64,000 bases of DNA from Candidatus Poriferisodalis sp. (lineage in GTDB: Bacteria > Actinomycetota > Acidimicrobiia > Acidimicrobiales > Poriferisodalaceae): positions 756,033 through 820,032 of the forward strand of contig NZ_CBDEGB010000001.1 in assembly GCF_965237655.1 (NCBI RefSeq), in the 5' to 3' direction. Shown piece after piece: positions 51,116 to 63,297 of this stretch (position 1 is its first letter; every line of letters begins with the position of its first letter). Position numbers and translations under genes: made by a program. Under the pieces are notes generated by a model, which saw only the letters and a list, made by a program, of their open reading frames with translations, searched no databases and was not told the DNA's origin.

Positions 51116-52756
51116 TCACCGCTGTGTCCATCGGCGGCGGTCGGCGGGGCTCGTGCAGTTCTCGGGAGGCGGTCCGCAGACCGTCACGTATGCGTCCCCG
51201 ACCTGTTTGCGCAGTTCGGCGTCGAGCGCGTCGTTGTCCAACAGCGCCCCGAGCGTGTCGAGGTCCTCGTCGGATTGGGCACACTCAGCGATCGCCCGCA
51301 GCGCACCCAGGGGTGTGCGCAGGTTTCTCGCAGTCGCTTCGCGAACGTGCCGATGCGGGTCCGTGGCCAGACGCTCCAGCAGCCTGACGGGGGTTTCGGG
51401 CATCCCCGCAGCGATCAGGCGGGCCCACCAGTGACTGTCGCACGCGAGACGCTCGGCTACACCGGCCATGTCGGTGCGGTCGGTGGCGGGGTTCGCTGCG
51501 GCCTCGGCCGCCGCTTGGCTGTCGGGGTCCTCGCACAGCCCCCGCAGCACCCCCGGCGGTGTCGCACAGTTCGCGGCGACCCGGCGCCGCACCAACACCA
51601 CACGGTCCCTCGACAGCCGTTCCAGCACTACTGGGGGCGTGGCGTGGTTCGCTGAGGCGGCGGCGCGCACCGACCTGTGCGGATCAGCCGCGAGCGCGTC
51701 GAGCAGCCTCGCCGGCGAAGCGGGGTTCGCGGCGACCGCGACGCGCACCTCTGTGTCGAGGCTCGGGGCGAGCGCTTCGAGGACCCGCACCGGCGCACGA
51801 GGCGCCCGACCGACCGTGGCTCGCACCGTCGGGTCGCTGTGGGAAGCCAGATCGCGCAGCAGCCGTGCTGGCGCACGCGGATGCATCGCGGCAAAGATCT
51901 GCTGGAACACCTCCGCGCTGCCCCCACGCCACGTCTGCCTCGCATAGAACTCCTCCACCCGCCCCACCGCAGCCTCGGCGACCAGCCAGGCGGGCGTGGA
52001 CGGGTTCTGCAGCACCCGCAGCCGAACGCACACATCGTCGAAACTGTGAGCCGTCTTGCAGCCCAACTTCTTGAGCGCTTCGACCGGGGTAGAGGGGTTC
52101 ACCGCCACTAGATCGCGAATCTGCCGATCGCGCTCGCCAGCCAGCTCGCCCAAACGTCGCGGGTCCGCATCCGGGTCCGTGGCTGTGGCCACATCCCGGA
52201 AACGCCGATCGGAATGCGCGGCCATCGTGTCGAAGAACCCCGCACCGAGCCGCTGCCCGACCTGCGTGTCGAACTCCCAGCGGCCCTCGCCCGTCCAGTT
52301 GGACCAGCCCGGCAGCCGCCACGGCGTGCGCCACAACGCACGCTCCAGCCGCTTCGCGAGCACCCACGACACGAACTCCCACGCCGCGTCGCTGCCCAGA
52401 TGCGCGCACGCCACCGCCAACGCGTCACGCTCATCGAACGCCAAATGCCAATATCCATACGGTCGGCGGATCCACAGCCACGCCAGCCGGCGAACCAGGC
52501 CGCTGAGCTGATCAGGGCGCACCAGACTCGCATTCAGCGCCGCCGTGACACCCCGCGCACGTCCCAGCGCCTCATTGGGCTGCCCCAAGGTCTCAAGCAG
52601 TGCCGTCTCCGAAGCCAAAACCTCCTCGTCGACCACAGCCCACACGCCGGCCCGCCGCTCCAAGACGACCTCGACGCCGTCCAGCATCACTCGGCGAACC
52701 AGATCGCCCTGCGGCCACACCACGACCCGGCGCTTGCTCATGTTTGTCCCAGACAT
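51116..52756 (-). CDS. Leucine-rich-variant / HEAT-like repeat protein
   Basis: At least six repeats of the NP(S/A)TPxxxLxxLAxDxxxxVRxxVAxN type in the C-terminal 330 aa. First gene of the operon. Confidence 0.65.
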   Translation of the reverse strand: MSGTNMSKRRVVVWPQGDLVRRVMLDGVEVVLERRAGVWAVVDEEVLASETALLETLGQPNEALGRARGVTAALNASLVRPDQLSGLVRRLAWLWIRRPYGYWHLAFDERDALAVACAHLGSDAAWEFVSWVLAKRLERALWRTPWRLPGWSNWTGEGRWEFDTQVGQRLGAGFFDTMAAHSDRRFRDVATATDPDADPRRLGELAGERDRQIRDLVAVNPSTPVEALKKLGCKTAHSFDDVCVRLRVLQNPSTPAWLVAEAAVGRVEEFYARQTWRGGSAEVFQQIFAAMHPRAPARLLRDLASHSDPTVRATVGRAPRAPVRVLEALAPSLDTEVRVAVAANPASPARLLDALAADPHRSVRAAASANHATPPVVLERLSRDRVVLVRRRVAANCATPPGVLRGLCEDPDSQAAAEAAANPATDRTDMAGVAERLACDSHWWARLIAAGMPETPVRLLERLATDPHRHVREATARNLRTPLGALRAIAECAQSDEDLDTLGALLDNDALDAELRKQVGDAYVTVCGPPPENCTSPADRRRWTQR

Positions 52757-53293
52757 GGCCGCGACCCTCGCGAAGGGGTGTCACAAACATCCAACCTCGC
52801 CGCCGCGAAAGCTCGCCGCGGACACGCCACGACCCACCGGTCCAGGACCGCACATCTCGCCAACGAATGTCACACGCGCGGTCCCAGCTGCCGAGCAGAA
52901 CCGCCCAAGGCCCCTCTTCGCATCGCCGTCGTGGGAATCCGCCGACAGCTTCCCAACCCATTCCCGCGGTCGGTCTCGGCCCGAAATCACTCGCTGTGCG
53001 TCACACCCCACCTCTACGGTGCGATGCAACCCCAGAGCCCGCATCCGCGCCCGAGCGGACCCCCAGCCGTGGTGCGCGGCGGCGCAGCCGAAAAGACGAC
53101 CCTGCCTGAATGCGAGCCTTACGAGTTCACAACTGAACACGCGTGGGACGACATCGCCGCGCTCAGCCCTGACGCGGCGGGGCAGTTTGGGCGAGTGGCT
53201 GAAGTCGCATGTGAGCTTCATGAATTGCCTTCTCAATCTCCCACGGCGTCGCACTTGCCGAAGCGGCCGCCGAGGGCAAGATCGTCGCCTTCG

Positions 53294-54085
53294 ATGAGCG
53301 TCACTGCTTCTGCCCAGCGAATGCAGACGGCTCCCCGTGAACTGACTCGGCTGGGAATGGCATTCTTGACCGCCGCCGACGAGTTCGCAGGGGTGGTTGT
53401 GTCTGACGATGCCTGGGCGGCGGATCCAGAGACGTGGATTCCGAGGCAGAGTTTCAGGCTCTCGCTGTCGAACATGCTGGTCATCCAGGCCGGGCTTGAG
53501 GGAACTCTCAGCAAGGCCCTAATGCCGTTCGCTGCGCGCGTGCTTCTTGAGGACGGAGCTAGATGGGCTGCGCTGCTGCCCGATGCGACTCAGGCCGGAC
53601 CGGGCGAGACCCTGAAGGCGCTGGTCAAAAACGCAACTTGGCGCCGAGACAGAATCGCCGAACGCCTTAGTTCTGAGGGGGTGCCGCAGCACTTGATCGA
53701 CGATGTGCTTGGAGCAGCGCTAGCAATCCCGCAACCCGAACCGCCGGCGCAACCGCCGCCGAGCCTGGACCAGATGCTGCAATCCGCGTACGCGAACGCG
53801 TCCGGTGTCGACTCCGCCCGGGCGATGTACGCCGTGCTGTCACAGTTCGTGCACGCCACGCCCATCTCGAACTGGCACATTCGCCGCGACACCTTCCCGT
53901 CGTTGACAGCACTCATTTACGCCGTCTCGATCGAGGCGGCAGCCCGCGGATTTGAGCGGATCGCCTCGATCACCGCAGTACTGGTCGGTGTCAACTCAGC
54001 GGCTCTGGAAGCGTCCCTGAACGAGCTCCGGGCGCGACGCACAGCGATTTTGCAAGGTGCGTTCATCTACCACGCGCTCGGTTAG
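53294..54085 (+). CDS. Hypothetical helical protein (possibly DUF5677-like)
   Basis: 263 aa from the ATG at 53294. The long upstream part of the tracked ORF 52214-54085 is the antisense shadow of the LRV gene. ...YAVLSQFVHATP... Confidence 0.4.
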   Translation: MSVTASAQRMQTAPRELTRLGMAFLTAADEFAGVVVSDDAWAADPETWIPRQSFRLSLSNMLVIQAGLEGTLSKALMPFAARVLLEDGARWAALLPDATQAGPGETLKALVKNATWRRDRIAERLSSEGVPQHLIDDVLGAALAIPQPEPPAQPPPSLDQMLQSAYANASGVDSARAMYAVLSQFVHATPISNWHIRRDTFPSLTALIYAVSIEAAARGFERIASITAVLVGVNSAALEASLNELRARRTAILQGAFIYHALG

Positions 54086-54234
54086 GCGCGACAGCGCGGT
54101 AGGGGCGACTGCGGGAGTTCAGGCGGGTTGAGAAGGCAGACGTGGACGCGCCGTAGGAGACGTGCGGATGCTCCCTACATTGGGACGTCCGGTATGGCCA
54201 GCGATTGCATTGGTCCTCTGGCCGACAAGGAGGA

Positions 54235-55080
54235 GTGGTGGGAGTCGCCGATCCAGCTGGAGCGCTCGACGTGGCGCAGAAGTTCATAGGGCTCCTTGAG
54301 GAGCACAAGCGATGCTTCGACCAGATCGACTCCTTCGAGGACCTATGGGCGGACGCCAAGGGTGATCACGGCAACGCGCAGGAACCGTTGCGCGAGCGAC
54401 GAGACGATCTCAATGTGGCGATCTGGCGACGACTTCCCTTGGTAGAGGGCATCGCCAAGCAGGTTGACCCCGACTTCACGAACGCGTCGTTTCAGGAAGG
54501 CGCTAGAGGAACCCTGTGGTCTTGGCGCGAGGCGCACGCGTCAGCTCATCGGCTCGTCGGCATCCTTGAACGAACTACAGAAGAAGCCGCGATCTTGGGT
54601 CCCGGCGGCCCGAAGCTCGCAGCCGGGGGAATGCACAAGTGGGTCTGGAACGCAGCAGCAGACCTCTGGGACGGCGAGCATTACAGAGAGGCAGTCAATG
54701 CTGCCGCGGCGGCCGTGGAGCAACACACCCAGCTCAAGCTCGATCGGGGCGACCTAAACGGCGCTGATCTGTACACGCAAGCGTTCAAGGTCGACAAACC
54801 GGACGCCCAACCAGACAGCCGCCGGCTGCGCTTCGGGAACATCCAAGAGCGGACTTCCAACGGCGAACGGACCAAGAATTGGACATCGGCGCACGAGGGC
54901 GCGATGCACTTCGGTCGGGGTTGTGCACAAGGAATCCGAAACCTGAACGTGCACGGCACAGACAGACTCAACGAACAAGAGGCGCTGGGATACCTCGCTT
55001 CACTGAGCGTGCTGGCACGCTGGATCGATGACGCTGAGGTCCGCGAGCCAGCACAGCCGACTCAGCCCACGACACTCTGA
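54235..55080 (+). CDS. TIGR02391-family protein
   Basis: MHKWVWNAAADLWDGEHYREAVNAAAAAVEQHT...GADLYTQAF...GIRNLNVHG...EQEALGYLASLSVLARWID matches the family pattern. AAGGAGG sits directly upstream of GTG 54235/54238. Confidence 0.6.
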   Translation: MVGVADPAGALDVAQKFIGLLEEHKRCFDQIDSFEDLWADAKGDHGNAQEPLRERRDDLNVAIWRRLPLVEGIAKQVDPDFTNASFQEGARGTLWSWREAHASAHRLVGILERTTEEAAILGPGGPKLAAGGMHKWVWNAAADLWDGEHYREAVNAAAAAVEQHTQLKLDRGDLNGADLYTQAFKVDKPDAQPDSRRLRFGNIQERTSNGERTKNWTSAHEGAMHFGRGCAQGIRNLNVHGTDRLNEQEALGYLASLSVLARWIDDAEVREPAQPTQPTTL

Positions 55081-55255
55081 CCAGCGGTGACCAACTGGGC
55101 GAGTTCCGGAGTTGGGGGCCGCGCATTCTACGATGCAAGCATGCAGCGCCCTGACCTAAGGCTTTGGGCTCTGGCACCAATTCCGCGGAGCCGTAGCCTC
55201 GAGTTGTCCCAGACTCGATGCGAATCCGGATTTTGCCGGACTGTCTCTCGACTGC

Positions 55256-56212
55256 TCAGAGTTCGCCGAGGACCGGCTCGACAGCACTCCGCAGTTTCCC
55301 CAGGGTGAGCACCATCCAGGCGTAGGCGTCTGGCCACTGGTCTTCGTCGTCGATGGTGATCTCGGCGGGGAAGTAGGCACTCACACGAGATGCCCGCCTG
55401 TCTTCGAGCGGTGACCATTCCAAAGGTTCGCCGCAAGCCGTCTCGATGTCTACGCTGCGCGCTTCGAGAGCCGAGTACAAGTCGGCCGTGGCGTCTTTGT
55501 CGCCGGTGTCGACGTATGCCTCGACACGCAGGCGCGGGGCTCCGTCCAGCCGACAGAACGAAACGCCGAACGCCACTCCTAGACGCCGCTTGAAGCTCAT
55601 CCACGAGTGCTTCGATGGCTTGCCCTGCCCGGCCCATCCTGGACTGTCCTCGCGGAACGCCGTCTGCGCCGCGGCCCAGAATCTGCGATAGAGCGCATTG
55701 CGCTCGCTGTCCTGGCGGTCCTTGGTCGCCCTGACGCTCTTAGACCAGTCGTCGGGCTGCACCACGACCTGCAGCTGCGGCGCAGGTATCGATTCGCCGA
55801 TGCGCCATATCTCCAGGGCAAGCCCGAAGAAACCGCAGTCCTCAGTCGAGACCGAGTTCAGCCAGTTCAGCGCGGAGCGGTGATCGGGGCGGAACTTCTC
55901 GGTCAGCAGCACGGCGTAGCTCGCCTTGAGGCCGGCCGCGTAGGTGATGAGCTTGCCGAGGTGGTCATGGTTCGTCGAGCCGTACATGTTCTCCACGACC
56001 ACGAGGCCGTCCGACGACAGGTCCCGCAGCACGAGGTCAGCGCTGAACTCGCCGACCTCGACCTCTCGGCCCTCCAGCTCGAGTTCCATCCCGAGGGCCT
56101 CGCTCAGCAGTTCGACATGCTCGGCCAGCCACGGCGTGAAGTCGCCGGCCTCGTCGGGCCACACATTGCGCACGGGGACATTCTCAAGTGTCCCGATCTC
56201 GTTCTCGCTCAT
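55256..56212 (-). CDS. DUF4268-type protein with a NucS/PD-(D/E)XK-like N-terminal nuclease fold
   Basis: WPDEAGDFTPWL...EVEVGEFSADLVLRD...VVVENMYGSTNHDHLGKLITYAA, then a DUF4268-like C-terminal half (ALYRRFW...). The ATG is codon 20 of the tracked ORF. Confidence 0.6.
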   Translation of the reverse strand: MSENEIGTLENVPVRNVWPDEAGDFTPWLAEHVELLSEALGMELELEGREVEVGEFSADLVLRDLSSDGLVVVENMYGSTNHDHLGKLITYAAGLKASYAVLLTEKFRPDHRSALNWLNSVSTEDCGFFGLALEIWRIGESIPAPQLQVVVQPDDWSKSVRATKDRQDSERNALYRRFWAAAQTAFREDSPGWAGQGKPSKHSWMSFKRRLGVAFGVSFCRLDGAPRLRVEAYVDTGDKDATADLYSALEARSVDIETACGEPLEWSPLEDRRASRVSAYFPAEITIDDEDQWPDAYAWMVLTLGKLRSAVEPVLGEL

Positions 56213-56791
56213 CGACGCCCCCTCGCCCGGTCGCGTGTCCTGTCCCGCGAAACGAAGTTGCGAGACCAACTCGGCAGGGCCAGATCTTGCGACTGTCTAG
56301 TACGTTGACCGCAGCGGTGCGTCCCAAGATGAGAAGTACTTCGCCGCAGCAAGCCAGTCTTGAGAGCCGTCAGCGCAGCACCCTGATCAGGGCATACCGT
56401 CCAAACACGTTCCAGAATCGACGTTCGCACGTTCCCCGCCCATTCAACACGGAGCTGTGACTCGGGGCACATCTCAATAACGCTGACCCAATTGGGAGTC
56501 GGTTGTGGCCCCAATCTGAGATCGCCCCGCGCTCCGACCGGCAGTTCTGGCATAGACGCGTTCCACGGCGTTGCAACCTCGAGATCACTACCAGGCAGGA
56601 CGCAGTTTCGCGCACGTCCCGGGCGATCCCGAATCGGCCTGCGGGTGCATATACCCAATGGGAGCACGGCGAACGCCCCCTGTTGCTGCGGGTAGGACCA
56701 CCTCAAGGACAACGTTAGGAACCAACGTTCTTTCTGTGTTCCGGTAGCGTCACTTGGTGCCGCCTAGTTTCGCTTCAGCCGGAGGGATCGG

Positions 56792-57832
56792 ATGTCAAAC
56801 CAGGTCCTGCGAAAGCTCCTTCACGCAGGCTTGCTCTCCGCGCTCGGTGATGACGACCAGCGGCGAGAGCGGGCAGAGGCAGCGTCCGACCGTGTTGCCG
56901 AGTGGCTCGGCAGCGACGGCCGCTCCCAGTTGGCGGCATCGTTGATTCACTCGATTGACGAGTCGATCACGACGATCAACCATCCGGTCTTGAGCTTTGC
57001 TGACGAATGCCTGCTGGAGCAGTGGCCGTCGTTTCGCAATGCGTTCGCTGAGCCACCAGCTGAGCTCCTGCGAGCAACGGTGTTTCAAGCCGCCATCTCG
57101 GCGGCGGCTTCTGACCCGACACTCGAGGCCGTTCTCTCGTACGTGCTTCGGACAGCCGAGACGTTGAAGATCTCGGTAGGCAGATGGCAGGAGGTGGTGC
57201 GAGGTGAAGCCGAGAGGATCAACACGGCTGTCGAGAAGCGTTTGGAAGCCACATGGCTGCCCTCGCCGGCCGCAGGGAAGTTGCGAATGCCGCCGATGCC
57301 GGCATTGGAAGAATCTGGCGACGAGTCATCTGACTTGCGAGCTTTCGCGGAGAAAGTCGGTGGGAACCTCCGGTCGCAACTGGAGGCCCAGTGGGCCGTT
57401 GTCGGTGCGACCCAGTTGAGGGAGAGGCTGTTGTGGTGGCACCTCGCGGCGTACTCCGAGACTCTGAAGATGCGCTACGTCGAAGTGGAAGCCACCGCGA
57501 TCCGCTGCATCGCTGCAGCGGTCGATGTTTGGAGACTGTCGCCCGCCATTGCTCCGCGCGCCGTCGAGCATCTTCTCACGGCCACTGTCGACTCCACCTG
57601 TGAAAGGCAAGTCGCCGTTTCATTCGTGGATTTGGTGGAAGCATGGCAGCAGATCACCTCCGACCACGAGTTCGGTGTCGTTGATGGTGGCCTCGTGCTG
57701 GCTGCGCTTTCAAGTGGCGACGCAAGTGTGACGGGCTCAACCCTTCCGGAGACTCTCACGGCTTGTGATGTCGCCGCGATTGTGTATCGAGATCTTCAAG
57801 TCCTCCGACTGCTCAACGAGACGAACAGTTGA
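56792..57832 (+). CDS. All-helical protein, first gene of the GTPase operon (GASH-like by context)
   Basis: 346-aa A/L/E-rich ORF with no enzymatic motif. GGAGGGA lies 5 nt before the ATG. The family call rests on gene context only. Confidence 0.5.
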   Translation: MSNQVLRKLLHAGLLSALGDDDQRRERAEAASDRVAEWLGSDGRSQLAASLIHSIDESITTINHPVLSFADECLLEQWPSFRNAFAEPPAELLRATVFQAAISAAASDPTLEAVLSYVLRTAETLKISVGRWQEVVRGEAERINTAVEKRLEATWLPSPAAGKLRMPPMPALEESGDESSDLRAFAEKVGGNLRSQLEAQWAVVGATQLRERLLWWHLAAYSETLKMRYVEVEATAIRCIAAAVDVWRLSPAIAPRAVEHLLTATVDSTCERQVAVSFVDLVEAWQQITSDHEFGVVDGGLVLAALSSGDASVTGSTLPETLTACDVAAIVYRDLQVLRLLNETNS

Positions 57833-57850
57833 TCTGCAAGAGATGCGGCC

Positions 57851-58885
57851 TTGACGTCGATCGCTGATCCCTCACCCGAAGTGCCTGGTGGCGAACCGCT
57901 GGCTCACGGTCGGGCTCAAGCCGAGGCTCAAGATGTCGCCTTGGATCAGGCTGGTGGATGCACGAACCGGTACTGCTTTGCTCCTGATTCCAACTGCCAT
58001 CTCGGTGAACTCGAGATTGCCAGTTGCATCAACTGGCAACAGGACATTCCGATCCAGTCCGCTCCGATGGTCGAAGGTGAACGCCCGCCTTGGTCTGGGC
58101 TGGCCCTCGGAACCGTGGATGCAGGCGGCGTCGCTGCAACTCGGCGGGCACGGGTAGTCGCGCTAGTCGGAGGTACCGGCGCCGGCAAGACCTCGCTTCT
58201 TACGGCCATATTCACTCGGCTTCGGCATGGAAGCCCCATCGGTGGCCTGCGCTTTGCTGGCTCGTACACACTCTTGGGATGGGATCAGGTCACCTACCTC
58301 GCCGCATTCCCTCCAGAGGGCACACGAGGATTCCCTCCGCACACCACGAGCGGCCGCGAGCCGGCGCTGCTCCATGTCCGCCTCGCGTCCGGCTCGAGGG
58401 CGTTCTGGGACATCTACTTCACTGACGCCCCCGGGGAGTGGTTTGAAGAATGGGCCTATGAACCTGTCGAGATGCCTGGGGCGCAATGGATATCTGAGCG
58501 TGCGGACATGTTCGTGCTTCTGTCCGATTCCGCTGCGTTGTCAGGCGAGTCACGCGGCGCAGCACGCAACGCATACCGCGTGCTGGCAAGCCGGGTCTCC
58601 TCGGTCGCGAATGGGCGCGAGGTCTACCCAGTTAGGGCGAAGTACGACCTGATGTCCACGGTTGCCGCCGAAATTGACGAAGCGCTCAACAAGACGGACA
58701 TCGACCTCTTCGGGCAAACCGCCGCTCCTCTATCGGTGATCGCAGAATCTCCCGTGCCAGACGCACTCCATGTACTTGACGAGATCGTTCAACGGGTGAC
58801 CGCTCCTGCACAGTTGTCCGTTACCGATCCAAGACTGTCTTCGGACCCGTTCCTCAGTTATCGCAGCCCTTTGGCCAAGACATGA
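57851..58885 (+). CDS. P-loop GTPase-like protein A with a Cys-rich N-terminal extension
   Basis: Walker A GGTGAGKTS (58169-58195), FTDAPGEWF (DxxG-like) and VRAKYD (degenerate NKxD position). The TTG start is uncertain, with an alternative ATG at 58067. Confidence 0.65.
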   Translation: MTSIADPSPEVPGGEPLAHGRAQAEAQDVALDQAGGCTNRYCFAPDSNCHLGELEIASCINWQQDIPIQSAPMVEGERPPWSGLALGTVDAGGVAATRRARVVALVGGTGAGKTSLLTAIFTRLRHGSPIGGLRFAGSYTLLGWDQVTYLAAFPPEGTRGFPPHTTSGREPALLHVRLASGSRAFWDIYFTDAPGEWFEEWAYEPVEMPGAQWISERADMFVLLSDSAALSGESRGAARNAYRVLASRVSSVANGREVYPVRAKYDLMSTVAAEIDEALNKTDIDLFGQTAAPLSVIAESPVPDALHVLDEIVQRVTAPAQLSVTDPRLSSDPFLSYRSPLAKT

Positions 58886-59721
58886 GCTCAACAGGCGAAT
58901 CCGAAACCCCGGCCGAGCTCACCCTCATCATCGGAGGACCCGGCAGTGGGAAATCAACGTATCTGGTGCAACTGTTCGGTCGCCTCCAAGAAGGCTCCAG
59001 CGCTTTCTCGCTCGTCGACGCGCCAGAGAGCCTTGGCCCGGTCAGAGACGGGCTGAACCGTCTCGCCCAAGGGTTGCCAGTTCGCCATACCTCAACCGGG
59101 GCGGAACTCATCCAAGAACTCAAGACCGTAAGGAACGACGGTGCGGAAGTGCGGGTGTCCATCCCCGACTACCCGGGCGAAGCCGTTGACGAACTGGTTG
59201 CTCGTCGCCGTGTTCCTTTCCGCTGGCGCGATCTGGCCGTGGAATCCGCTCGATGGCTGCTGTTCGTTCGGGTCGAGCAGATGCCCGACCTCCCTGGTTT
59301 GCCCGCACGCGAAGTGTCGACCCCAAGCTCCCCCGACCTGCAACGCGAACTGCCCATGGACATCCGGCTAGTCGAGCTGCTCCAGATCTTGCGCCACGAA
59401 CGTCGACGGCGAAAGCCGTCTGCATCCGAGATGCCAGACCTAACGATCGTGATGTCGTGCTGGGATGAGATCTCAGATAAACCTGACGGCATTGCGCCGG
59501 CGTCCATCCTGCATGAGCGGGCACCGCTCATGCACTCGTATGCGGAAGCCAGCTGGGAGCCTGCCCGCTTGTCTGTCGTCGGGCTCTCGGCGCAAGGGCT
59601 TTCGCTCGAAGAGTCGAATCCGAACGCCCAGTTCATTGACCTCGGCCCCGAGTCGATGGGGTTCCTCGTGCGACAAGACGGGACGGTGACAGACGACCTC
59701 ACTGAACTCTTGGCACGATGA
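58882..59721 (+). CDS. P-loop GTPase-like protein B (paralogue of A)
   Basis: Walker A GGPGSGKST (58933-58959), IPDYPGEAV and VMSCWDE. ATGA overlaps at both ends. Confidence 0.65.
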   Translation: MSSTGESETPAELTLIIGGPGSGKSTYLVQLFGRLQEGSSAFSLVDAPESLGPVRDGLNRLAQGLPVRHTSTGAELIQELKTVRNDGAEVRVSIPDYPGEAVDELVARRRVPFRWRDLAVESARWLLFVRVEQMPDLPGLPAREVSTPSSPDLQRELPMDIRLVELLQILRHERRRRKPSASEMPDLTIVMSCWDEISDKPDGIAPASILHERAPLMHSYAEASWEPARLSVVGLSAQGLSLEESNPNAQFIDLGPESMGFLVRQDGTVTDDLTELLAR

Positions 59722-62669
59722 GTGAGCGATTCGGGTGGGCAAGATTCGGCGATGTGAACGGCGGGCACAACCTGATCGATGCGAATGGCATTGAGAGCGA
59801 TCTGCTCAGCGACATTCGCTGGCACACTGACCTGCCGCCTGCCGCACCGTCCGAATGGCCTGCGTTCTTCGCCGGCTACCCGATCGGGGACCAGTACGTC
59901 GTTCAGTTCACCCAGCCCGACACTCAAGCCAGCCGGCCCGGGATGGTCGCAACGACATTGGTCACGGTTGGCCTCAGCGAAGTTGGAAGGGTCGCGCTAG
60001 CAACCCTCCGACGGGCGTCTGCCCTGATCAGCGAACCCGCAGCCCCTCCGCACCGTCACGAACGCATAGACGGCCTCGGCGCTGTCTTGAACCTACTGGC
60101 GGGCTCAGGGCCGGCCTACTGGGTCGGAGACCCGACTTTCGGCCTACTGGTCGACCAACTCTGGGAAGTGCTGAATGCGGAAGATCGAGCGGCGCTCGTG
60201 TTCGGGGCGCTGTTCACGCCAACAAGCATTCCGTACCCACTGATCAGCGGAACAACGCACGGCGTCTACCGCGTGCCGGAGCATCTGCGCTCGAGATTCC
60301 AGACCAGATCGATAGTCAGCGCAGCGAATCCGCCTGTCGCCGGCGAGCCTGCCAGCGACATACTCGCTGGCAGGACGGGCATCGCAGCCGATCTCGGCAT
60401 CGAAACACCATCGCTTCGCCAGTGGCTCCATCTCTCGAAGGCAAACCGCTACTACAACCAAGCTGGCATCTCGAATCCCGATGAGCTCCGGTCCTGCGCT
60501 CATCTCGTCATGCTGCTCGCCCCTGAGCCAGAAGACGGCCTGTCGATCAAACAGCGGTTGGGCACGATGATCGTCGAGTCAAGTGCGAGCGCTCCCTTCT
60601 CGCATATCCGAGGTCTTCGCAGTATCGAGCTCGACGATCTAGGCGTTCAGCTCAGGGACGCCATCGATCCGTGGGCAGATGCAGTGATTCGGGACCCAAA
60701 CCGCATCGATGATCTCGAGGCCGCTTTGGCTGAGACGGCAGTCACCCCGTCGGATCCGCTCTCTTCCAAGTTGGAAGCCGCGCTAGCCGAGCAGATCGCA
60801 GCGAGCGGTCAGGCGATCATGGGCCACTTCGATGCTGCGCTGACTGTGGACAATCGAGCCGTATTCGCTGCGCTTGCCCGCCACCTTGACCGAACCCGGG
60901 GCGATTTGATGTTGGCATCCGTGAGCGCAATCGGTAGTCGAGATTGGACTCACGAGATTGCCCGACTTGAAGAGCTGCCCCTCTTCCACGCCAGCTCGTG
61001 CCCGACGGATGAGCCGATCGGTGCATTCAGCGCGCACCTATCAATCTCTGGACATTCGGCCGAGTCATGCGCGCGACTCGCAGCTAGGTGCAGGCCGCAG
61101 CACGTCGTATCGGCTGCGTGCGCCCTCGGGGCACCCGACCTCATCCCACTTGCTGCAAGAGCTGCTCTACAAGATGTTGACGCTCTCTTGCCGGCGCAGC
61201 CAGCCAACCGACACTGGCTGGACATCTGGGCGCATGCAGTTGACGGCGGTGCCGACCCATGGATCTGGCTCCAACCCGAGGAGGCTGTGGTGCCGGTTAT
61301 CGACGCTCTCATGGACGGCAATCAGTCCATGGCGAGGATTCTGACCGAACTGAGTAAGCACGACGACATCGATCTCGCCACTTACCCCAGACGAACTGAA
61401 GCATGGGGCATCATCCAAGAACCAGCACGCTCCCGCCTGCTCCGCCGCACTGCGGTCACAATTGTCCTCGAGGGCACGGTGACCGACGACCTCGAGCCGG
61501 CGCTGCGCAGCGCTGTTCTCAGCGCTGACGTCATGGCACGAGCAGCAGCCTCGGATGTCTCAGCGGCAATCGATGCCCTTGAGACACTCGCTGCGCATGC
61601 GAACTCCGATATCGCCAAAGCTGTAGTCAAGGCAGCCGATCTCGGAGTCGATGCTGACCGGTTCGCTGACCTCATCGTTCACCGAAGCTGGACAGGGGCA
61701 GCACGCTACGTCATCCGCAAGGCCCCGGACAGGCCGGATCTCGCGTCGATTGAAGGCAAGTGCCGGCAGGTCTTCCTCATGACCGTGGTCGACTGGTTTG
61801 ATGCCATGCTCGGTAGGTACCCGAAGCCAGTTCGCGCACGCCTCAGAAATGACACTCTGCCAGGAACGTTAGATGCGCTGATCGTCACAGCAATTCAGAT
61901 AGAGCGAAAGGCTGTTCGGAAACACCTCGAGGATTGGAAGTCTTTACGCCACAAGAAGATCACCGTCGACGTCGGAACATTCGAAGGCGGCGAGCGGACG
62001 CTCCGCGTCGGAGTCATTGAGGTCGGTCAAGGCAACATCGGCGCAGCCACCATCACGACGATGGCCGTGGAAGGGCTGCAGCCGCAGATCGTTCTGATGG
62101 TGGGTGTGGCCGGCGGAGTCAAGGATGTCGATATCGGCGATGTGGTCGCATCGAGCAAGATCTACTGGGCCGAATCCGGCAAGAGTGAGGCCGATCATGA
62201 GGCACCACGACCTGACCATGGACCTGTTTCACAAGACCTGGTTCAGGTCGCCCGAGATGTTGCCGCAGACGACACATGGAAATCCCGACGGCTGAGCGAA
62301 GCCGACGCGGCCTCAGCACCCAAGGCGATAGTCGCTCCGATTGTGGCGGGCGAGCGCGTCGTCGGGTCCAGAGATTCTGCAGATGCACGCCGAATCAAGG
62401 AGACCTACGGCGATGCCGTCGCAGTCGACATGGAAGATATGGGCGTCGCCACCGCAGCAGACTGGACTGGATCTAAGTGTTTGGCGATACGGGCCATATC
62501 CGACCTCCTCGACGGCAAGGCAGAGGCGGACGCGGGCGGCAGCCAACCAATCGCCGCTGCCAATGCAGCTGCTTTTGCATTCGAACTGCTCGCGAGATTC
62601 CACCACTCGACCTTCGAAGACGCACCATTTGACGAAACTGGCCCACTCACCCAAGACCTCGACAGCTAG
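59718..62669 (+). CDS. 983-aa scaffold protein (GAP1-like by context) with a C-terminal PNP/UDP-phosphorylase (MTA/SAH-nucleosidase-like) domain
   Basis: Residues about 716-960 (nt 61863-62597) hold ALIVTAIQIERKAV, MVGVAGG (62103-62117), VAPIVAGERVV and AVDMEDMGVA, the nucleosidase hallmarks. The N-terminal 700 aa has no recognised motif. Confidence 0.65.
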   Translation: MSERFGWARFGDVNGGHNLIDANGIESDLLSDIRWHTDLPPAAPSEWPAFFAGYPIGDQYVVQFTQPDTQASRPGMVATTLVTVGLSEVGRVALATLRRASALISEPAAPPHRHERIDGLGAVLNLLAGSGPAYWVGDPTFGLLVDQLWEVLNAEDRAALVFGALFTPTSIPYPLISGTTHGVYRVPEHLRSRFQTRSIVSAANPPVAGEPASDILAGRTGIAADLGIETPSLRQWLHLSKANRYYNQAGISNPDELRSCAHLVMLLAPEPEDGLSIKQRLGTMIVESSASAPFSHIRGLRSIELDDLGVQLRDAIDPWADAVIRDPNRIDDLEAALAETAVTPSDPLSSKLEAALAEQIAASGQAIMGHFDAALTVDNRAVFAALARHLDRTRGDLMLASVSAIGSRDWTHEIARLEELPLFHASSCPTDEPIGAFSAHLSISGHSAESCARLAARCRPQHVVSAACALGAPDLIPLAARAALQDVDALLPAQPANRHWLDIWAHAVDGGADPWIWLQPEEAVVPVIDALMDGNQSMARILTELSKHDDIDLATYPRRTEAWGIIQEPARSRLLRRTAVTIVLEGTVTDDLEPALRSAVLSADVMARAAASDVSAAIDALETLAAHANSDIAKAVVKAADLGVDADRFADLIVHRSWTGAARYVIRKAPDRPDLASIEGKCRQVFLMTVVDWFDAMLGRYPKPVRARLRNDTLPGTLDALIVTAIQIERKAVRKHLEDWKSLRHKKITVDVGTFEGGERTLRVGVIEVGQGNIGAATITTMAVEGLQPQIVLMVGVAGGVKDVDIGDVVASSKIYWAESGKSEADHEAPRPDHGPVSQDLVQVARDVAADDTWKSRRLSEADAASAPKAIVAPIVAGERVVGSRDSADARRIKETYGDAVAVDMEDMGVATAADWTGSKCLAIRAISDLLDGKAEADAGGSQPIAAANAAAFAFELLARFHHSTFEDAPFDETGPLTQDLDS

Positions 62670-62776: not shown

Positions 62777-63061
62777 GTGGCTCGAGCAAGAAGAGGTGAT
62801 GCTCTGGCCTCCGGTCCTGGCCACAACGCGTTCCGCGAATCGACCAAACGCGTTCCGCAAACCGTCGTAACGCGTTCCGCGGCCACCCAGCGGCATCTCG
62901 CTGACCTGCGAGAACACAGTTTCGCACCAACCCCACGAGGGCAATTCGCACACGTCCCCGAGAGGACGGCTGTCCGAAGTCTGCCCCTTTCGCAGCAGAG
63001 TTCGGCACGCCGTAGCGCTCGCGGCATCCTCGCCGAAGCTGACAAGATGGTTGAACCATGA
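62777..63061 (+). CDS. Possible HicA-like toxin
   Basis: ATGA overlap with the HicB-like gene. ...QRHLADLREHSFAPTPRGQFAHVPERTAVRSLPLS...ARGILAEA loosely follows the HicA pattern. The start is uncertain. Confidence 0.35.
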   Translation: MARARRGDALASGPGHNAFRESTKRVPQTVVTRSAATQRHLADLREHSFAPTPRGQFAHVPERTAVRSLPLSQQSSARRSARGILAEADKMVEP

Positions 63062-63297
63062 AACCTGACGTGACCACCTTGGGACATCGCGTCGAAGTTG
63101 TGCAATCTGGCGAGTGGTGGGCGACTACGGTTCCTTCGCTTCGGGGCGTCTTCTCGCAAGCGAGACACCTCGACGAGGTGCCGGCGGCCGCTTGCGAGGC
63201 GATCGCCCTGATGCTCGATGTTGATCCTGCCGACGTGGGGCCGATCGACGTGCGTGTGCAGCGGCAGCAGGGTGGGGCTGAGCTTCTGGCCGGGTAG
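63058..63297 (+). CDS. HicB-like (UPF0150) antitoxin-fold protein
   Basis: HRVEVVQSGEWWATTVPSLRGVFSQARHLDEVPAAACEAIALML fits the HicB N-domain pattern. No DNA-binding tail is present. Confidence 0.55.
   Translation: MKPDVTTLGHRVEVVQSGEWWATTVPSLRGVFSQARHLDEVPAAACEAIALMLDVDPADVGPIDVRVQRQQGGAELLAG

Follow-up and report, generated by a model that had tools for sequence, protein, structure and literature searches.

What would a nucleosidase be doing at the end of a long helical protein, encoded directly behind a pair of GTPases? This question is raised by a gene of Candidatus Poriferisodalis sp. (assembly GCF_965237655.1), located in a stretch of 64,000 nucleotides that was analysed as a whole and is here called the window (contig NZ_CBDEGB010000001.1, positions 756,033-820,032 of the forward strand; unless stated otherwise, the coordinates below are positions in this window). 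The gene, an open reading frame (ORF) at 59718..62669 on the plus strand, encodes a fusion protein of 983 residues (P0001), in which Pfam recognises a GAP1-N1 domain at the N-terminus and a PNP_UDP_1 domain at the C-terminus. A preliminary description of this DNA, made from its letters, had predicted that a nucleosidase resembling PNPs and 5’-methylthioadenosine/S-adenosylhomocysteine nucleosidases (MTANs) is fused to the C-terminus of a 983-residue scaffold as a regulated toxic effector. All of the peptides that it quoted are present in the translation, in which residue 716 starts at nucleotide 61863 and residue 960 ends at nucleotide 62597. Here we argue, from sequence comparison, structure prediction and analogy to assayed enzymes, that the C-terminal 250 residues are probably a catalytically intact MTAN-fold N-glycosidase and act as the integral effector of a GAP1-N1 double-GTPase conflict system with four genes, the GTPases of which would gate the cleavage of ATP and dATP.

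A complete MTAN-type domain with a conserved active site

Residues 716-965 (61863..62612, plus strand) are confirmed as a complete PNP_UDP_1/MTAN-fold domain, on which Pfam, PADLOC, sequence matches in the PDB, AlphaFold2 and Foldseek all agree. The Pfam family PNP_UDP_1 (PF01048) matches residues 721-958 from profile position 3 to 232 out of 233, scoring 71.3 bits (cut-off 25.1) at an E-value of 1e-19. The CBASS ‘PN-superfamily’ effector model of PADLOC also recognises the domain (E 4.6e-17, 60 bits), as does PDC-M60C, a component of a candidate system, over the same stretch (E 4.6e-20). The best sequence matches in the PDB are exclusively MTA/SAH nucleosidases, the top one at E 7e-11. An AlphaFold2 model of residues 701-983, based on an alignment of 49 sequences, has a mean predicted local distance difference test score (pLDDT) of 87 and a predicted template modelling (TM) score of 0.86, and its structured elements run from residue 720 to 965. 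When this model was compared with the PDB using Foldseek, the top 50 matches were all chains of MTANs or futalosine hydrolases (4wkb, 1nc1 and others), with E-values around 2e-20 and target TM scores of 0.82-0.84. The fold is thus a catalytic one of the MTAN type, in agreement with the preliminary description.

Is the active site intact as well? Using E. coli MtnN, taken from NC_000913, as the reference for alignment, and counting conservation in 132 relatives of the domain, we find the catalytic and ribose-binding residues both present and conserved. E729 (codon 61902..61904, plus strand) corresponds to MtnN E12, which activates the nucleophilic water, and is a Glu in 130 of the 132 relatives. 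M905-E906 (62430..62435, plus strand) takes the place of M173-E174, which binds the 2’- and 3’-hydroxyls of the ribose, and R925, S928 and D929 within the motif ‘RAISD’ (62490..62504, plus strand) are equivalent to R193, S196 and D197; both sets are found in 131/132. All of these residues are kept in each of the six GAP1-PNP fusions. As such, the acidic motif ‘DME’, which had been taken for the catalytic one, has to be reassigned: M905-E906 is the ribose-binding Met-Glu pair, D929 is the general acid, and E729 of ‘IQIER’ is the Glu that activates the water. D929 aligns with D353 of the immune nucleosidase DtcC, and ‘RAISD’ matches the ‘RGISD’ of Cap17, which contains D472.

The pocket that receives the alkylthio group in MtnN is changed in the window domain: S76 is replaced by V797 and F207 by A939, and the loop that carries F105 and Y107 is absent. 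Furthermore, the domain has a cluster of basic residues, K802, K814, K822 and R831 (62121..62210, plus strand), the equivalents of which are non-basic in MtnN. Among the relatives, K802 is conserved in 131/132, K814 and R831 each in 127/132, and position 822 is a Lys or Arg in all 132. We infer from this pattern that the four residues are candidate contacts for a polyphosphate. The ATP nucleosidases that have been assayed share with the window domain, and unlike MtnN, a Val or Ile in place of S76, the lack of the F105/Y107 loop, and basic residues at positions 802, 822 and 831.

Nucleosidases of immunity and of metabolism

The chemistry of such domains is known from bacterial immunity. Rousset et al. 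2023 (10.1101/2023.01.24.525353) demonstrated that the PNPs Cap17, of CBASS, and DtcC, of Detocs, split ATP and dATP into adenine and a sugar triphosphate, that defence is lost in Cap17 D472A and DtcC D353A, and that isolated PNP domains are toxic and deplete ATP. In their study, the immune PNPs form a clade apart from MtnN, DeoD, Udp, XapA and MqnB, and the four members that were assayed, of bacterial, fungal and sponge origin, were all reported as ATP nucleosidases. Their list for this clade is dominated by NLR-like contexts and is rich in actinobacterial PNPs of the ‘NLR-like’ and ‘NLR-like (split)’ type. The latter include entries from Rhodococcus fascians and Micromonospora, and both genera hold close relatives of the window domain in which the PNP is followed by an EAD1 domain; as the list (Table S4 of that study) gives taxa and contexts only, these relatives could not be matched to the IMG gene ids of its entries.

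For our comparisons, the sequences of DtcC and of the fungal and sponge PNPs were taken from Table S8 of the same study, and an E. coli genome supplied the full-length Cap17. RefSeq names this Cap17 (L016 1998-3515, E. coli EcPF14, WP_001534695.1) ‘5’-methylthioadenosine/S-adenosylhomocysteine nucleosidase’, an instance of the systematic naming of immune PNP effectors after metabolic enzymes. A hidden Markov model (HMM) of the window clade gave its highest score to the PNP of Cap17, with 80.7 bits in one contiguous match, followed by the sponge DDAN PNP with 65.1 bits and E. coli MtnN with 55.0 bits, the latter in two fragments, while DeoD and Amn reached 24.7 and 18.0 bits. The window domain has the fold, the catalytic Asp, a hydrophobic residue for MtnN S76 and the absence of an alkylthio loop in common with Cap17 and DtcC, and in each case the PNP is a swappable effector on an immune sensor. 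The sequences have diverged far, however, with the window clade being only 20-30% identical to the assayed enzymes, Cap17 and DtcC included, and the triggers differ: the window system would use a GTPase/GAP1 switch, whereas Cap17 has a TPALS domain that binds cyclic nucleotides and DtcC has a phospho-receiver. Judging from these sequence features, it is likely that the window PNP is functionally similar to the enzymes of the Cap17 clade.

Housekeeping enzymes such as MtnN and MqnB are the best structural match to the domain (TM 0.82-0.84), and possess the same catalytic Glu/Glu/Asp and Arg. Yet these are free-standing proteins of about 230 residues, whereas the window domain is fused to a 700-residue scaffold, has a pocket rebuilt with basic residues, is sporadic and island-borne, and remains under the cut-offs of the NCBIfam equivalogs. 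These scores are 71.1 versus 169 for NF004079 (MTAN), 44.1 versus 73.8 for TIGR01704, and 70.6 versus 124.7 for TIGR03664 (futalosine hydrolase). Together with the missing alkylthio loop and an occurrence in 1/201 genomes, this bears out the earlier suggestion that the domain is not a housekeeping MTAN or PNP. The genome itself encodes one MTAP-like and two Udp-like enzymes. The two Udp-like genes, each coding for 257 residues, are near-identical (2 residues differ) and lie on opposite strands, 0.5 Mb apart (genome coordinates G000:C2:1433026-1433691, L003, and C2:1934412-1935074, L002); the pair may have arisen by recent duplication or may represent a repeated segment.

A four-gene GTPase operon

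The gene for the fusion protein is the last of four on the plus strand, each product of which scores far over the cut-off of its own Pfam family. The first encodes a GASH protein of 346 residues (56792..57832; PF19994, E 1.3e-29, 104 bits versus a cut-off of 27), and three related loci, L011, L014 and L018, have it in the same position. It is followed by DO-GTPase2, of 344 residues (57851..58885; PF19993, E 1.2e-39, 136.8 bits), with the Walker A motif GGTGAGKTS and a Walker B motif containing a Glu, DAPGE. In front of its P-loop, this protein (P0003) has an N-terminal cluster of Cys and His residues (C37, C42, C49/H50 and C59), possibly corresponding to the zinc ribbon reported in that family. 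DO-GTPase1, of 279 residues (58882..59721; PF19975, E 7.8e-60, 202.9 bits), carries the motifs GGPGSGKST and DYPGE, again with a Glu in Walker B. The GAP1-N1 domain of the fusion protein (residues 8-93; 59739..59996) is matched by PF20012 with an E-value of 5.1e-15 and 56 bits versus a cut-off of 27. Overlaps of stop and start codon within the sequence ATGA, at 58882-58885 and 59718-59721, link the last three genes, such that DO-GTPase1 is translationally coupled at both of its ends and the start codon of GAP1 overlaps the stop codon of DO-GTPase1. The coupled NTPase operon noticed beforehand can thus be given a name, as it matches the published DO-GTPase/GAP1-N1 system.

In that publication, Kaur, Burroughs, Iyer & Aravind (eLife 2020, PMC7159879) described a ‘GTPase-centric subsystem 1’ consisting of GASH, two DO-GTPases, one of which has a zinc ribbon, GAP1-N1 and variable effectors. 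PNPase is listed among the effectors that are fused to GAP1, direct fusion being one of three modes of coupling, and docking of an effector on the scaffold through EAD1-EAD1 contacts was proposed as well. Like this system, the window locus has the same set and order of genes, paired DO-GTPases with a Glu in Walker B, and a variable effector at the C-terminus of the GAP1-N1 protein. It differs in that its GAP1 belongs to a small, divergent subfamily, with no Pfam model on the middle and C-terminal part beyond GAP1-N1. The published GAP1-N1 systems come mainly from proteobacteria, bacteroidetes and spirochaetes (Kaur et al. 2020). Judged by its gene content and profile matches, the window operon is a member of a system that was already described in silico, with an effector chemistry that is known from other systems.

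Substrate and role of the nucleosidase

Several observations weigh against our conclusion that the operon gates an ATP/dATP nucleosidase. The choice of ATP and dATP as the substrate is made by analogy to the assayed enzymes. With the HMM of the window clade, two of these reach lower scores than MtnN, namely DtcC at 38.7 bits and the NLRN PNP of the fungus at 35.4 bits. The NCBIfam profiles of MTANs and futalosine hydrolases (both about 71 bits) match the domain about as well as the CBASS PNP model of PADLOC does (60 bits). Two IQ-TREE runs that included the window clade, Cap17, DtcC, fungal NLRN, sponge DDAN, MtnN, DeoD, Udp, XapA and Amn of E. coli, and the genome’s own PNPs resulted, with long-branch warnings, in a polytomy at the deep nodes where MtnN, Amn, Cap17/DtcC and the window clade part, and the approximately unbiased test of a single defence clade neither supports nor rejects it (p = 0.213). 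As for the switch, a literature search for bench tests of DO-GTPase/GAP1 systems returned nothing but the prediction of 2020 and, in a preprint of 2026, one mention in passing. Moreover, in the AlphaFold2 model of the full-length protein, almost all residues beyond 690 have a pLDDT below 50, because the alignment mixes EAD1-ended with PNP-ended homologues. The packing of the PNP on the scaffold and any autoinhibition can therefore not be read from this model, and the activation mechanism is conjecture.

An active and regulated toxic nucleosidase might instead act on a different substrate, for which ADP, AMP, NAD, S-adenosylmethionine, SAH, MTA or adenine in nucleic acid come into consideration. 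MTA/SAH, futalosine and AMP nucleosidases do have this fold and this catalytic triad, and both the deep polytomy and the low identity between the window clade and the assayed enzymes leave room for this explanation. Nevertheless, we regard it as unlikely. The loss of the alkylthio pocket and the conserved Lys and Arg residues that are found instead fit a 5’ group that is phosphorylated. Adenine nucleotides are also indicated by the retention of the Asp with which MtnN reads N6 and N7 of the adenine, and ATP nucleosidase activity was reported for all four assayed members (Rousset et al. 2023). In a more speculative variant, the window clade, having its own invariant Lys/Arg, may act on a nucleotide other than ATP, which could tie the chemistry of the effector to the GTPase switch.

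Could the PNP domain be a generator of signals rather than a killer? The base or ribose-phosphate derivative that it frees from a nucleotide once activated would then serve as second messenger to a distinct executioner, e.g. a SLATT pore. Burroughs and Aravind originally proposed this, and it is the role given to the PNPase by Kaur et al. 2020, who also found SLATT genes accompanying nucleotide-related effectors in some GAP1-N1 systems. The operon, however, offers no candidate for the executioner: a SLATT, transmembrane or other effector gene is present neither in nor beside it, including the region after the operon, and an extra effector gene is likewise lacking in the related loci L011, L013, L014 and L018. 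Since isolated PNPs of the immune clade are toxic alone and deplete ATP (Rousset et al. 2023), a role in signalling seems rather improbable to us.

A chance fusion, whether of a housekeeping enzyme resembling MTANs or of a structural module that is catalytically dead, can be dismissed as very improbable, for although databases label such proteins MTA/SAH nucleosidases, including E. coli Cap17 and some of the relatives, both readings were rejected on account of an active site conserved in 130-131/132 relatives, scores under all equivalog cut-offs, a sporadic spread in a genome that has its own MTAP-like and Udp-like enzymes, and a gene that is always found within the GTPase operon.

Fused and split forms of the system

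Full-length orthologues of the fusion protein are rare: only five were found among 5.8 billion clusters, with 52-61% identity and the same two Pfam domains. A search with the PNP domain by itself returned hundreds of matches, the nearest of which (at most 65% identity) are proteins of about 350 residues with an N-terminal PNP and a C-terminal EAD1 (PF19955). The gene for the closest PNP (P0016, 65% identity) lies directly after a gene for a 790-residue protein that starts with GAP1-N1 and ends in EAD1. In locus L014, the operon is laid out as GASH, DO-GTPase2, DO-GTPase1, GAP1 and PNP-EAD1, and a second example of this five-gene split layout occurs in a metagenome-assembled genome (MAG) of Ca. 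Spongiisocius. Residues 1-686 of the window GAP1 are 54% identical to the 790-residue GAP1 of L014 (P0136); the BLASTP alignment ends at residue 686, and EAD1 begins at about residue 706-711 in the GAP1-EAD1 relatives.

The split version (L014, L015, L017 and L018) has the GAP1 core, the PNP domain and the three upstream genes in common with the window. Its scaffold, however, ends in an EAD1 of about 80 residues, and the nucleosidase is a separate protein of about 345 residues with a C-terminal EAD1 of its own. In the window, both copies of EAD1 are gone, and the PNP is covalently joined at about residues 687-715. The GAP1 subfamily comprises 6 clusters that end in a PNP and 14 clusters of 787-792 residues; in 9 of the latter 14, Pfam detects EAD1, and a rescan added a tenth, which is P0136, the GAP1 of L014. 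It thus appears from these comparisons that the window protein is the fused form of a system that is more often split, with the covalent link replacing the EAD1-EAD1 bridge.

In the PNP tree, the window domain groups with P0005-P0007 (support 100/98), and P0008 and P0009 fall among the PNPs of the split type. The GAP1 core of P0009 is 51% identical to that of the window, versus 54% for several EAD1-ended cores. This hints, with weak support, at more than one event of fusion or fission. We would put little confidence in the stronger proposal that, within one narrow GAP1 subfamily, the nucleosidase is either covalent or recruited through EAD1-EAD1 contacts, and that these forms have interconverted more than once. 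If true, the two forms would make a natural test pair for whether EAD1 is a mere tether, and the proximity of PNP domains the whole of the activation step.

The PNP domain itself is far more widespread, as 1,213 clusters (50% identity) came up at E <= 1e-30 when 1.84 billion cluster representatives were searched exhaustively. Fusion partners in 59 of the nearest multi-domain representatives are NB-ARC (11), NACHT (4), AAA_16 (9), TPR arrays (13), TIR (8) and EAD1 (3). The closest of these proteins are thus of the NLR-like/STAND kind that also prevails in the Cap17-clade list of Rousset et al. 2023. Across the proteins P0150-P0290, which are 259-1744 residues in length, the PNP domain is found at either end, and TIR-PNP and NB-ARC/NACHT-TPR-PNP fusions are included.

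The GAP1 scaffold

Between the GAP1-N1 domain and the PNP lies the middle and C-terminal core of GAP1 (residues 94-686; 59997..61775, plus strand), a small alpha/beta part followed by an all-helical body. In a Pfam scan of the 983-residue protein at E <= 0.1, only GAP1-N1 and PNP_UDP_1 gave a match, with none for a GAP1-M or GAP1-C domain, leaving residues 94-686 without a family; this part nonetheless shows homology to the GAP1-EAD1 proteins encoded in operons of this type. At the junction (residues 687-715; 61776..61862, plus strand), the homology to those relatives stops and the PNP domain starts. The full-length AlphaFold2 model is mostly confident over residues 1-690, and shows a beta-rich N1 domain, the small alpha/beta part and the long helical body, with a pLDDT of about 85-93 in most blocks of residues 210-690 and a lower value of 53-80 for residues 400-500. 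The junction has a pLDDT below 50 in both models, over residues 690-715 of the full-length one and over the first 11 residues (701-711) of the domain model.

The 700 residues upstream of the PNP had been described as helical and repeat-like. The model supports their helical nature, but the repeats were not found: self-BLASTP of residues 1-705 returned the identity match alone, and Tandem Repeats Finder detected only a trivial match of 7 bp in 2 copies in the DNA. Foldseek of the full-length model gave no match at E < 1e-3, and only a weak likeness to alpha-solenoids (karyopherins, PP2A-A and CAND1). The GAP1 core is therefore without a solved relative.

Genomic surroundings and distribution

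Over the cluster of conflict genes (53000-62500), the G+C fraction is 0.60-0.64, versus 0.68-0.71 on either flank, which suggests that the cluster is a horizontally acquired island. Just upstream of the GTPase operon are a Hypoth_Ymh gene (54205-55080, plus strand; PF09509, E 1e-22), a DUF4268 gene (55256-56269, minus strand; E 1e-19) and an LRV-repeat gene (51116-52756, minus strand). Downstream, two small ORFs with an ATGA overlap are present at 62777-63297 (plus strand). The first has no match and the second a weak, sub-threshold match to HicB (E 2.9e-4), and a transmembrane segment was found in neither. Scans for promoters and terminators gave nothing exceeding the shuffled expectation. 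MmeI, PIN and DNA-methyltransferase genes are the neighbours of the orthologous and related loci, and these neighbourhoods, like that of the window operon, are defence islands. In the orthologous locus of P0006 (L011, 6933-8001), DO-GTPase1 is called at just 195 residues and followed by a gap of 480 nucleotides before GAP1; this may be a decayed or mis-assembled copy.

Among 201 sampled genomes of the same order, GAP1-N1 occurs in one, and it is found in neither of two congeners. A pattern-based scan of GTDB species representatives identified two loci only, both in MAGs of the Acidimicrobiia type, and the GAP1 subfamily as a whole amounts to about 20 clusters at 90% identity. The sporadic presence, the low G+C, the immune-type neighbours and the genome’s own MTAP and Udp enzymes therefore fit a horizontally acquired defence module, and not a metabolic role.

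A model for activation, and what it would mean

How, then, could two GTPases control a nucleosidase? Solved MTANs are dimers, and their active sites make use of residues from the partner subunit. In the mechanism that we propose, the two paralogous GTPases would form a switch that is bound to GAP1 via the N1 domain. A cue derived from an invader, for which GASH or the helical body of GAP1 would be the sensor, would alter the nucleotide state of the GTPases, upon which GAP1 might be released, reshaped or oligomerised. This would allow the tethered PNP domains to pair into the dimer that MTAN-fold enzymes require, and to cut the bond between adenine and ribose in ATP and dATP, as Cap17 and DtcC do. 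The resulting loss of energy and deoxynucleotides would halt replication of the phage by abortive infection or growth arrest. By analogy to these immune enzymes, we infer that abortive infection through cleavage of ATP and dATP is the most likely function of the system.

Beyond its value as a test case and for annotation, the locus holds no new principle, and to a specialist it will come as no surprise. At the least, recognising such domains as immune effectors avoids the metabolic mis-annotation of those labelled ‘MTA/SAH nucleosidase’. Furthermore, the close relatives in fused and EAD1-split form provide a natural control for the proposed role of EAD1 in docking. Being a compact, four-gene version of the system, with an effector whose chemistry is easily assayed and well understood, the operon of Candidatus Poriferisodalis would offer an entry point to the way in which paired GTPases may control an immune effector.

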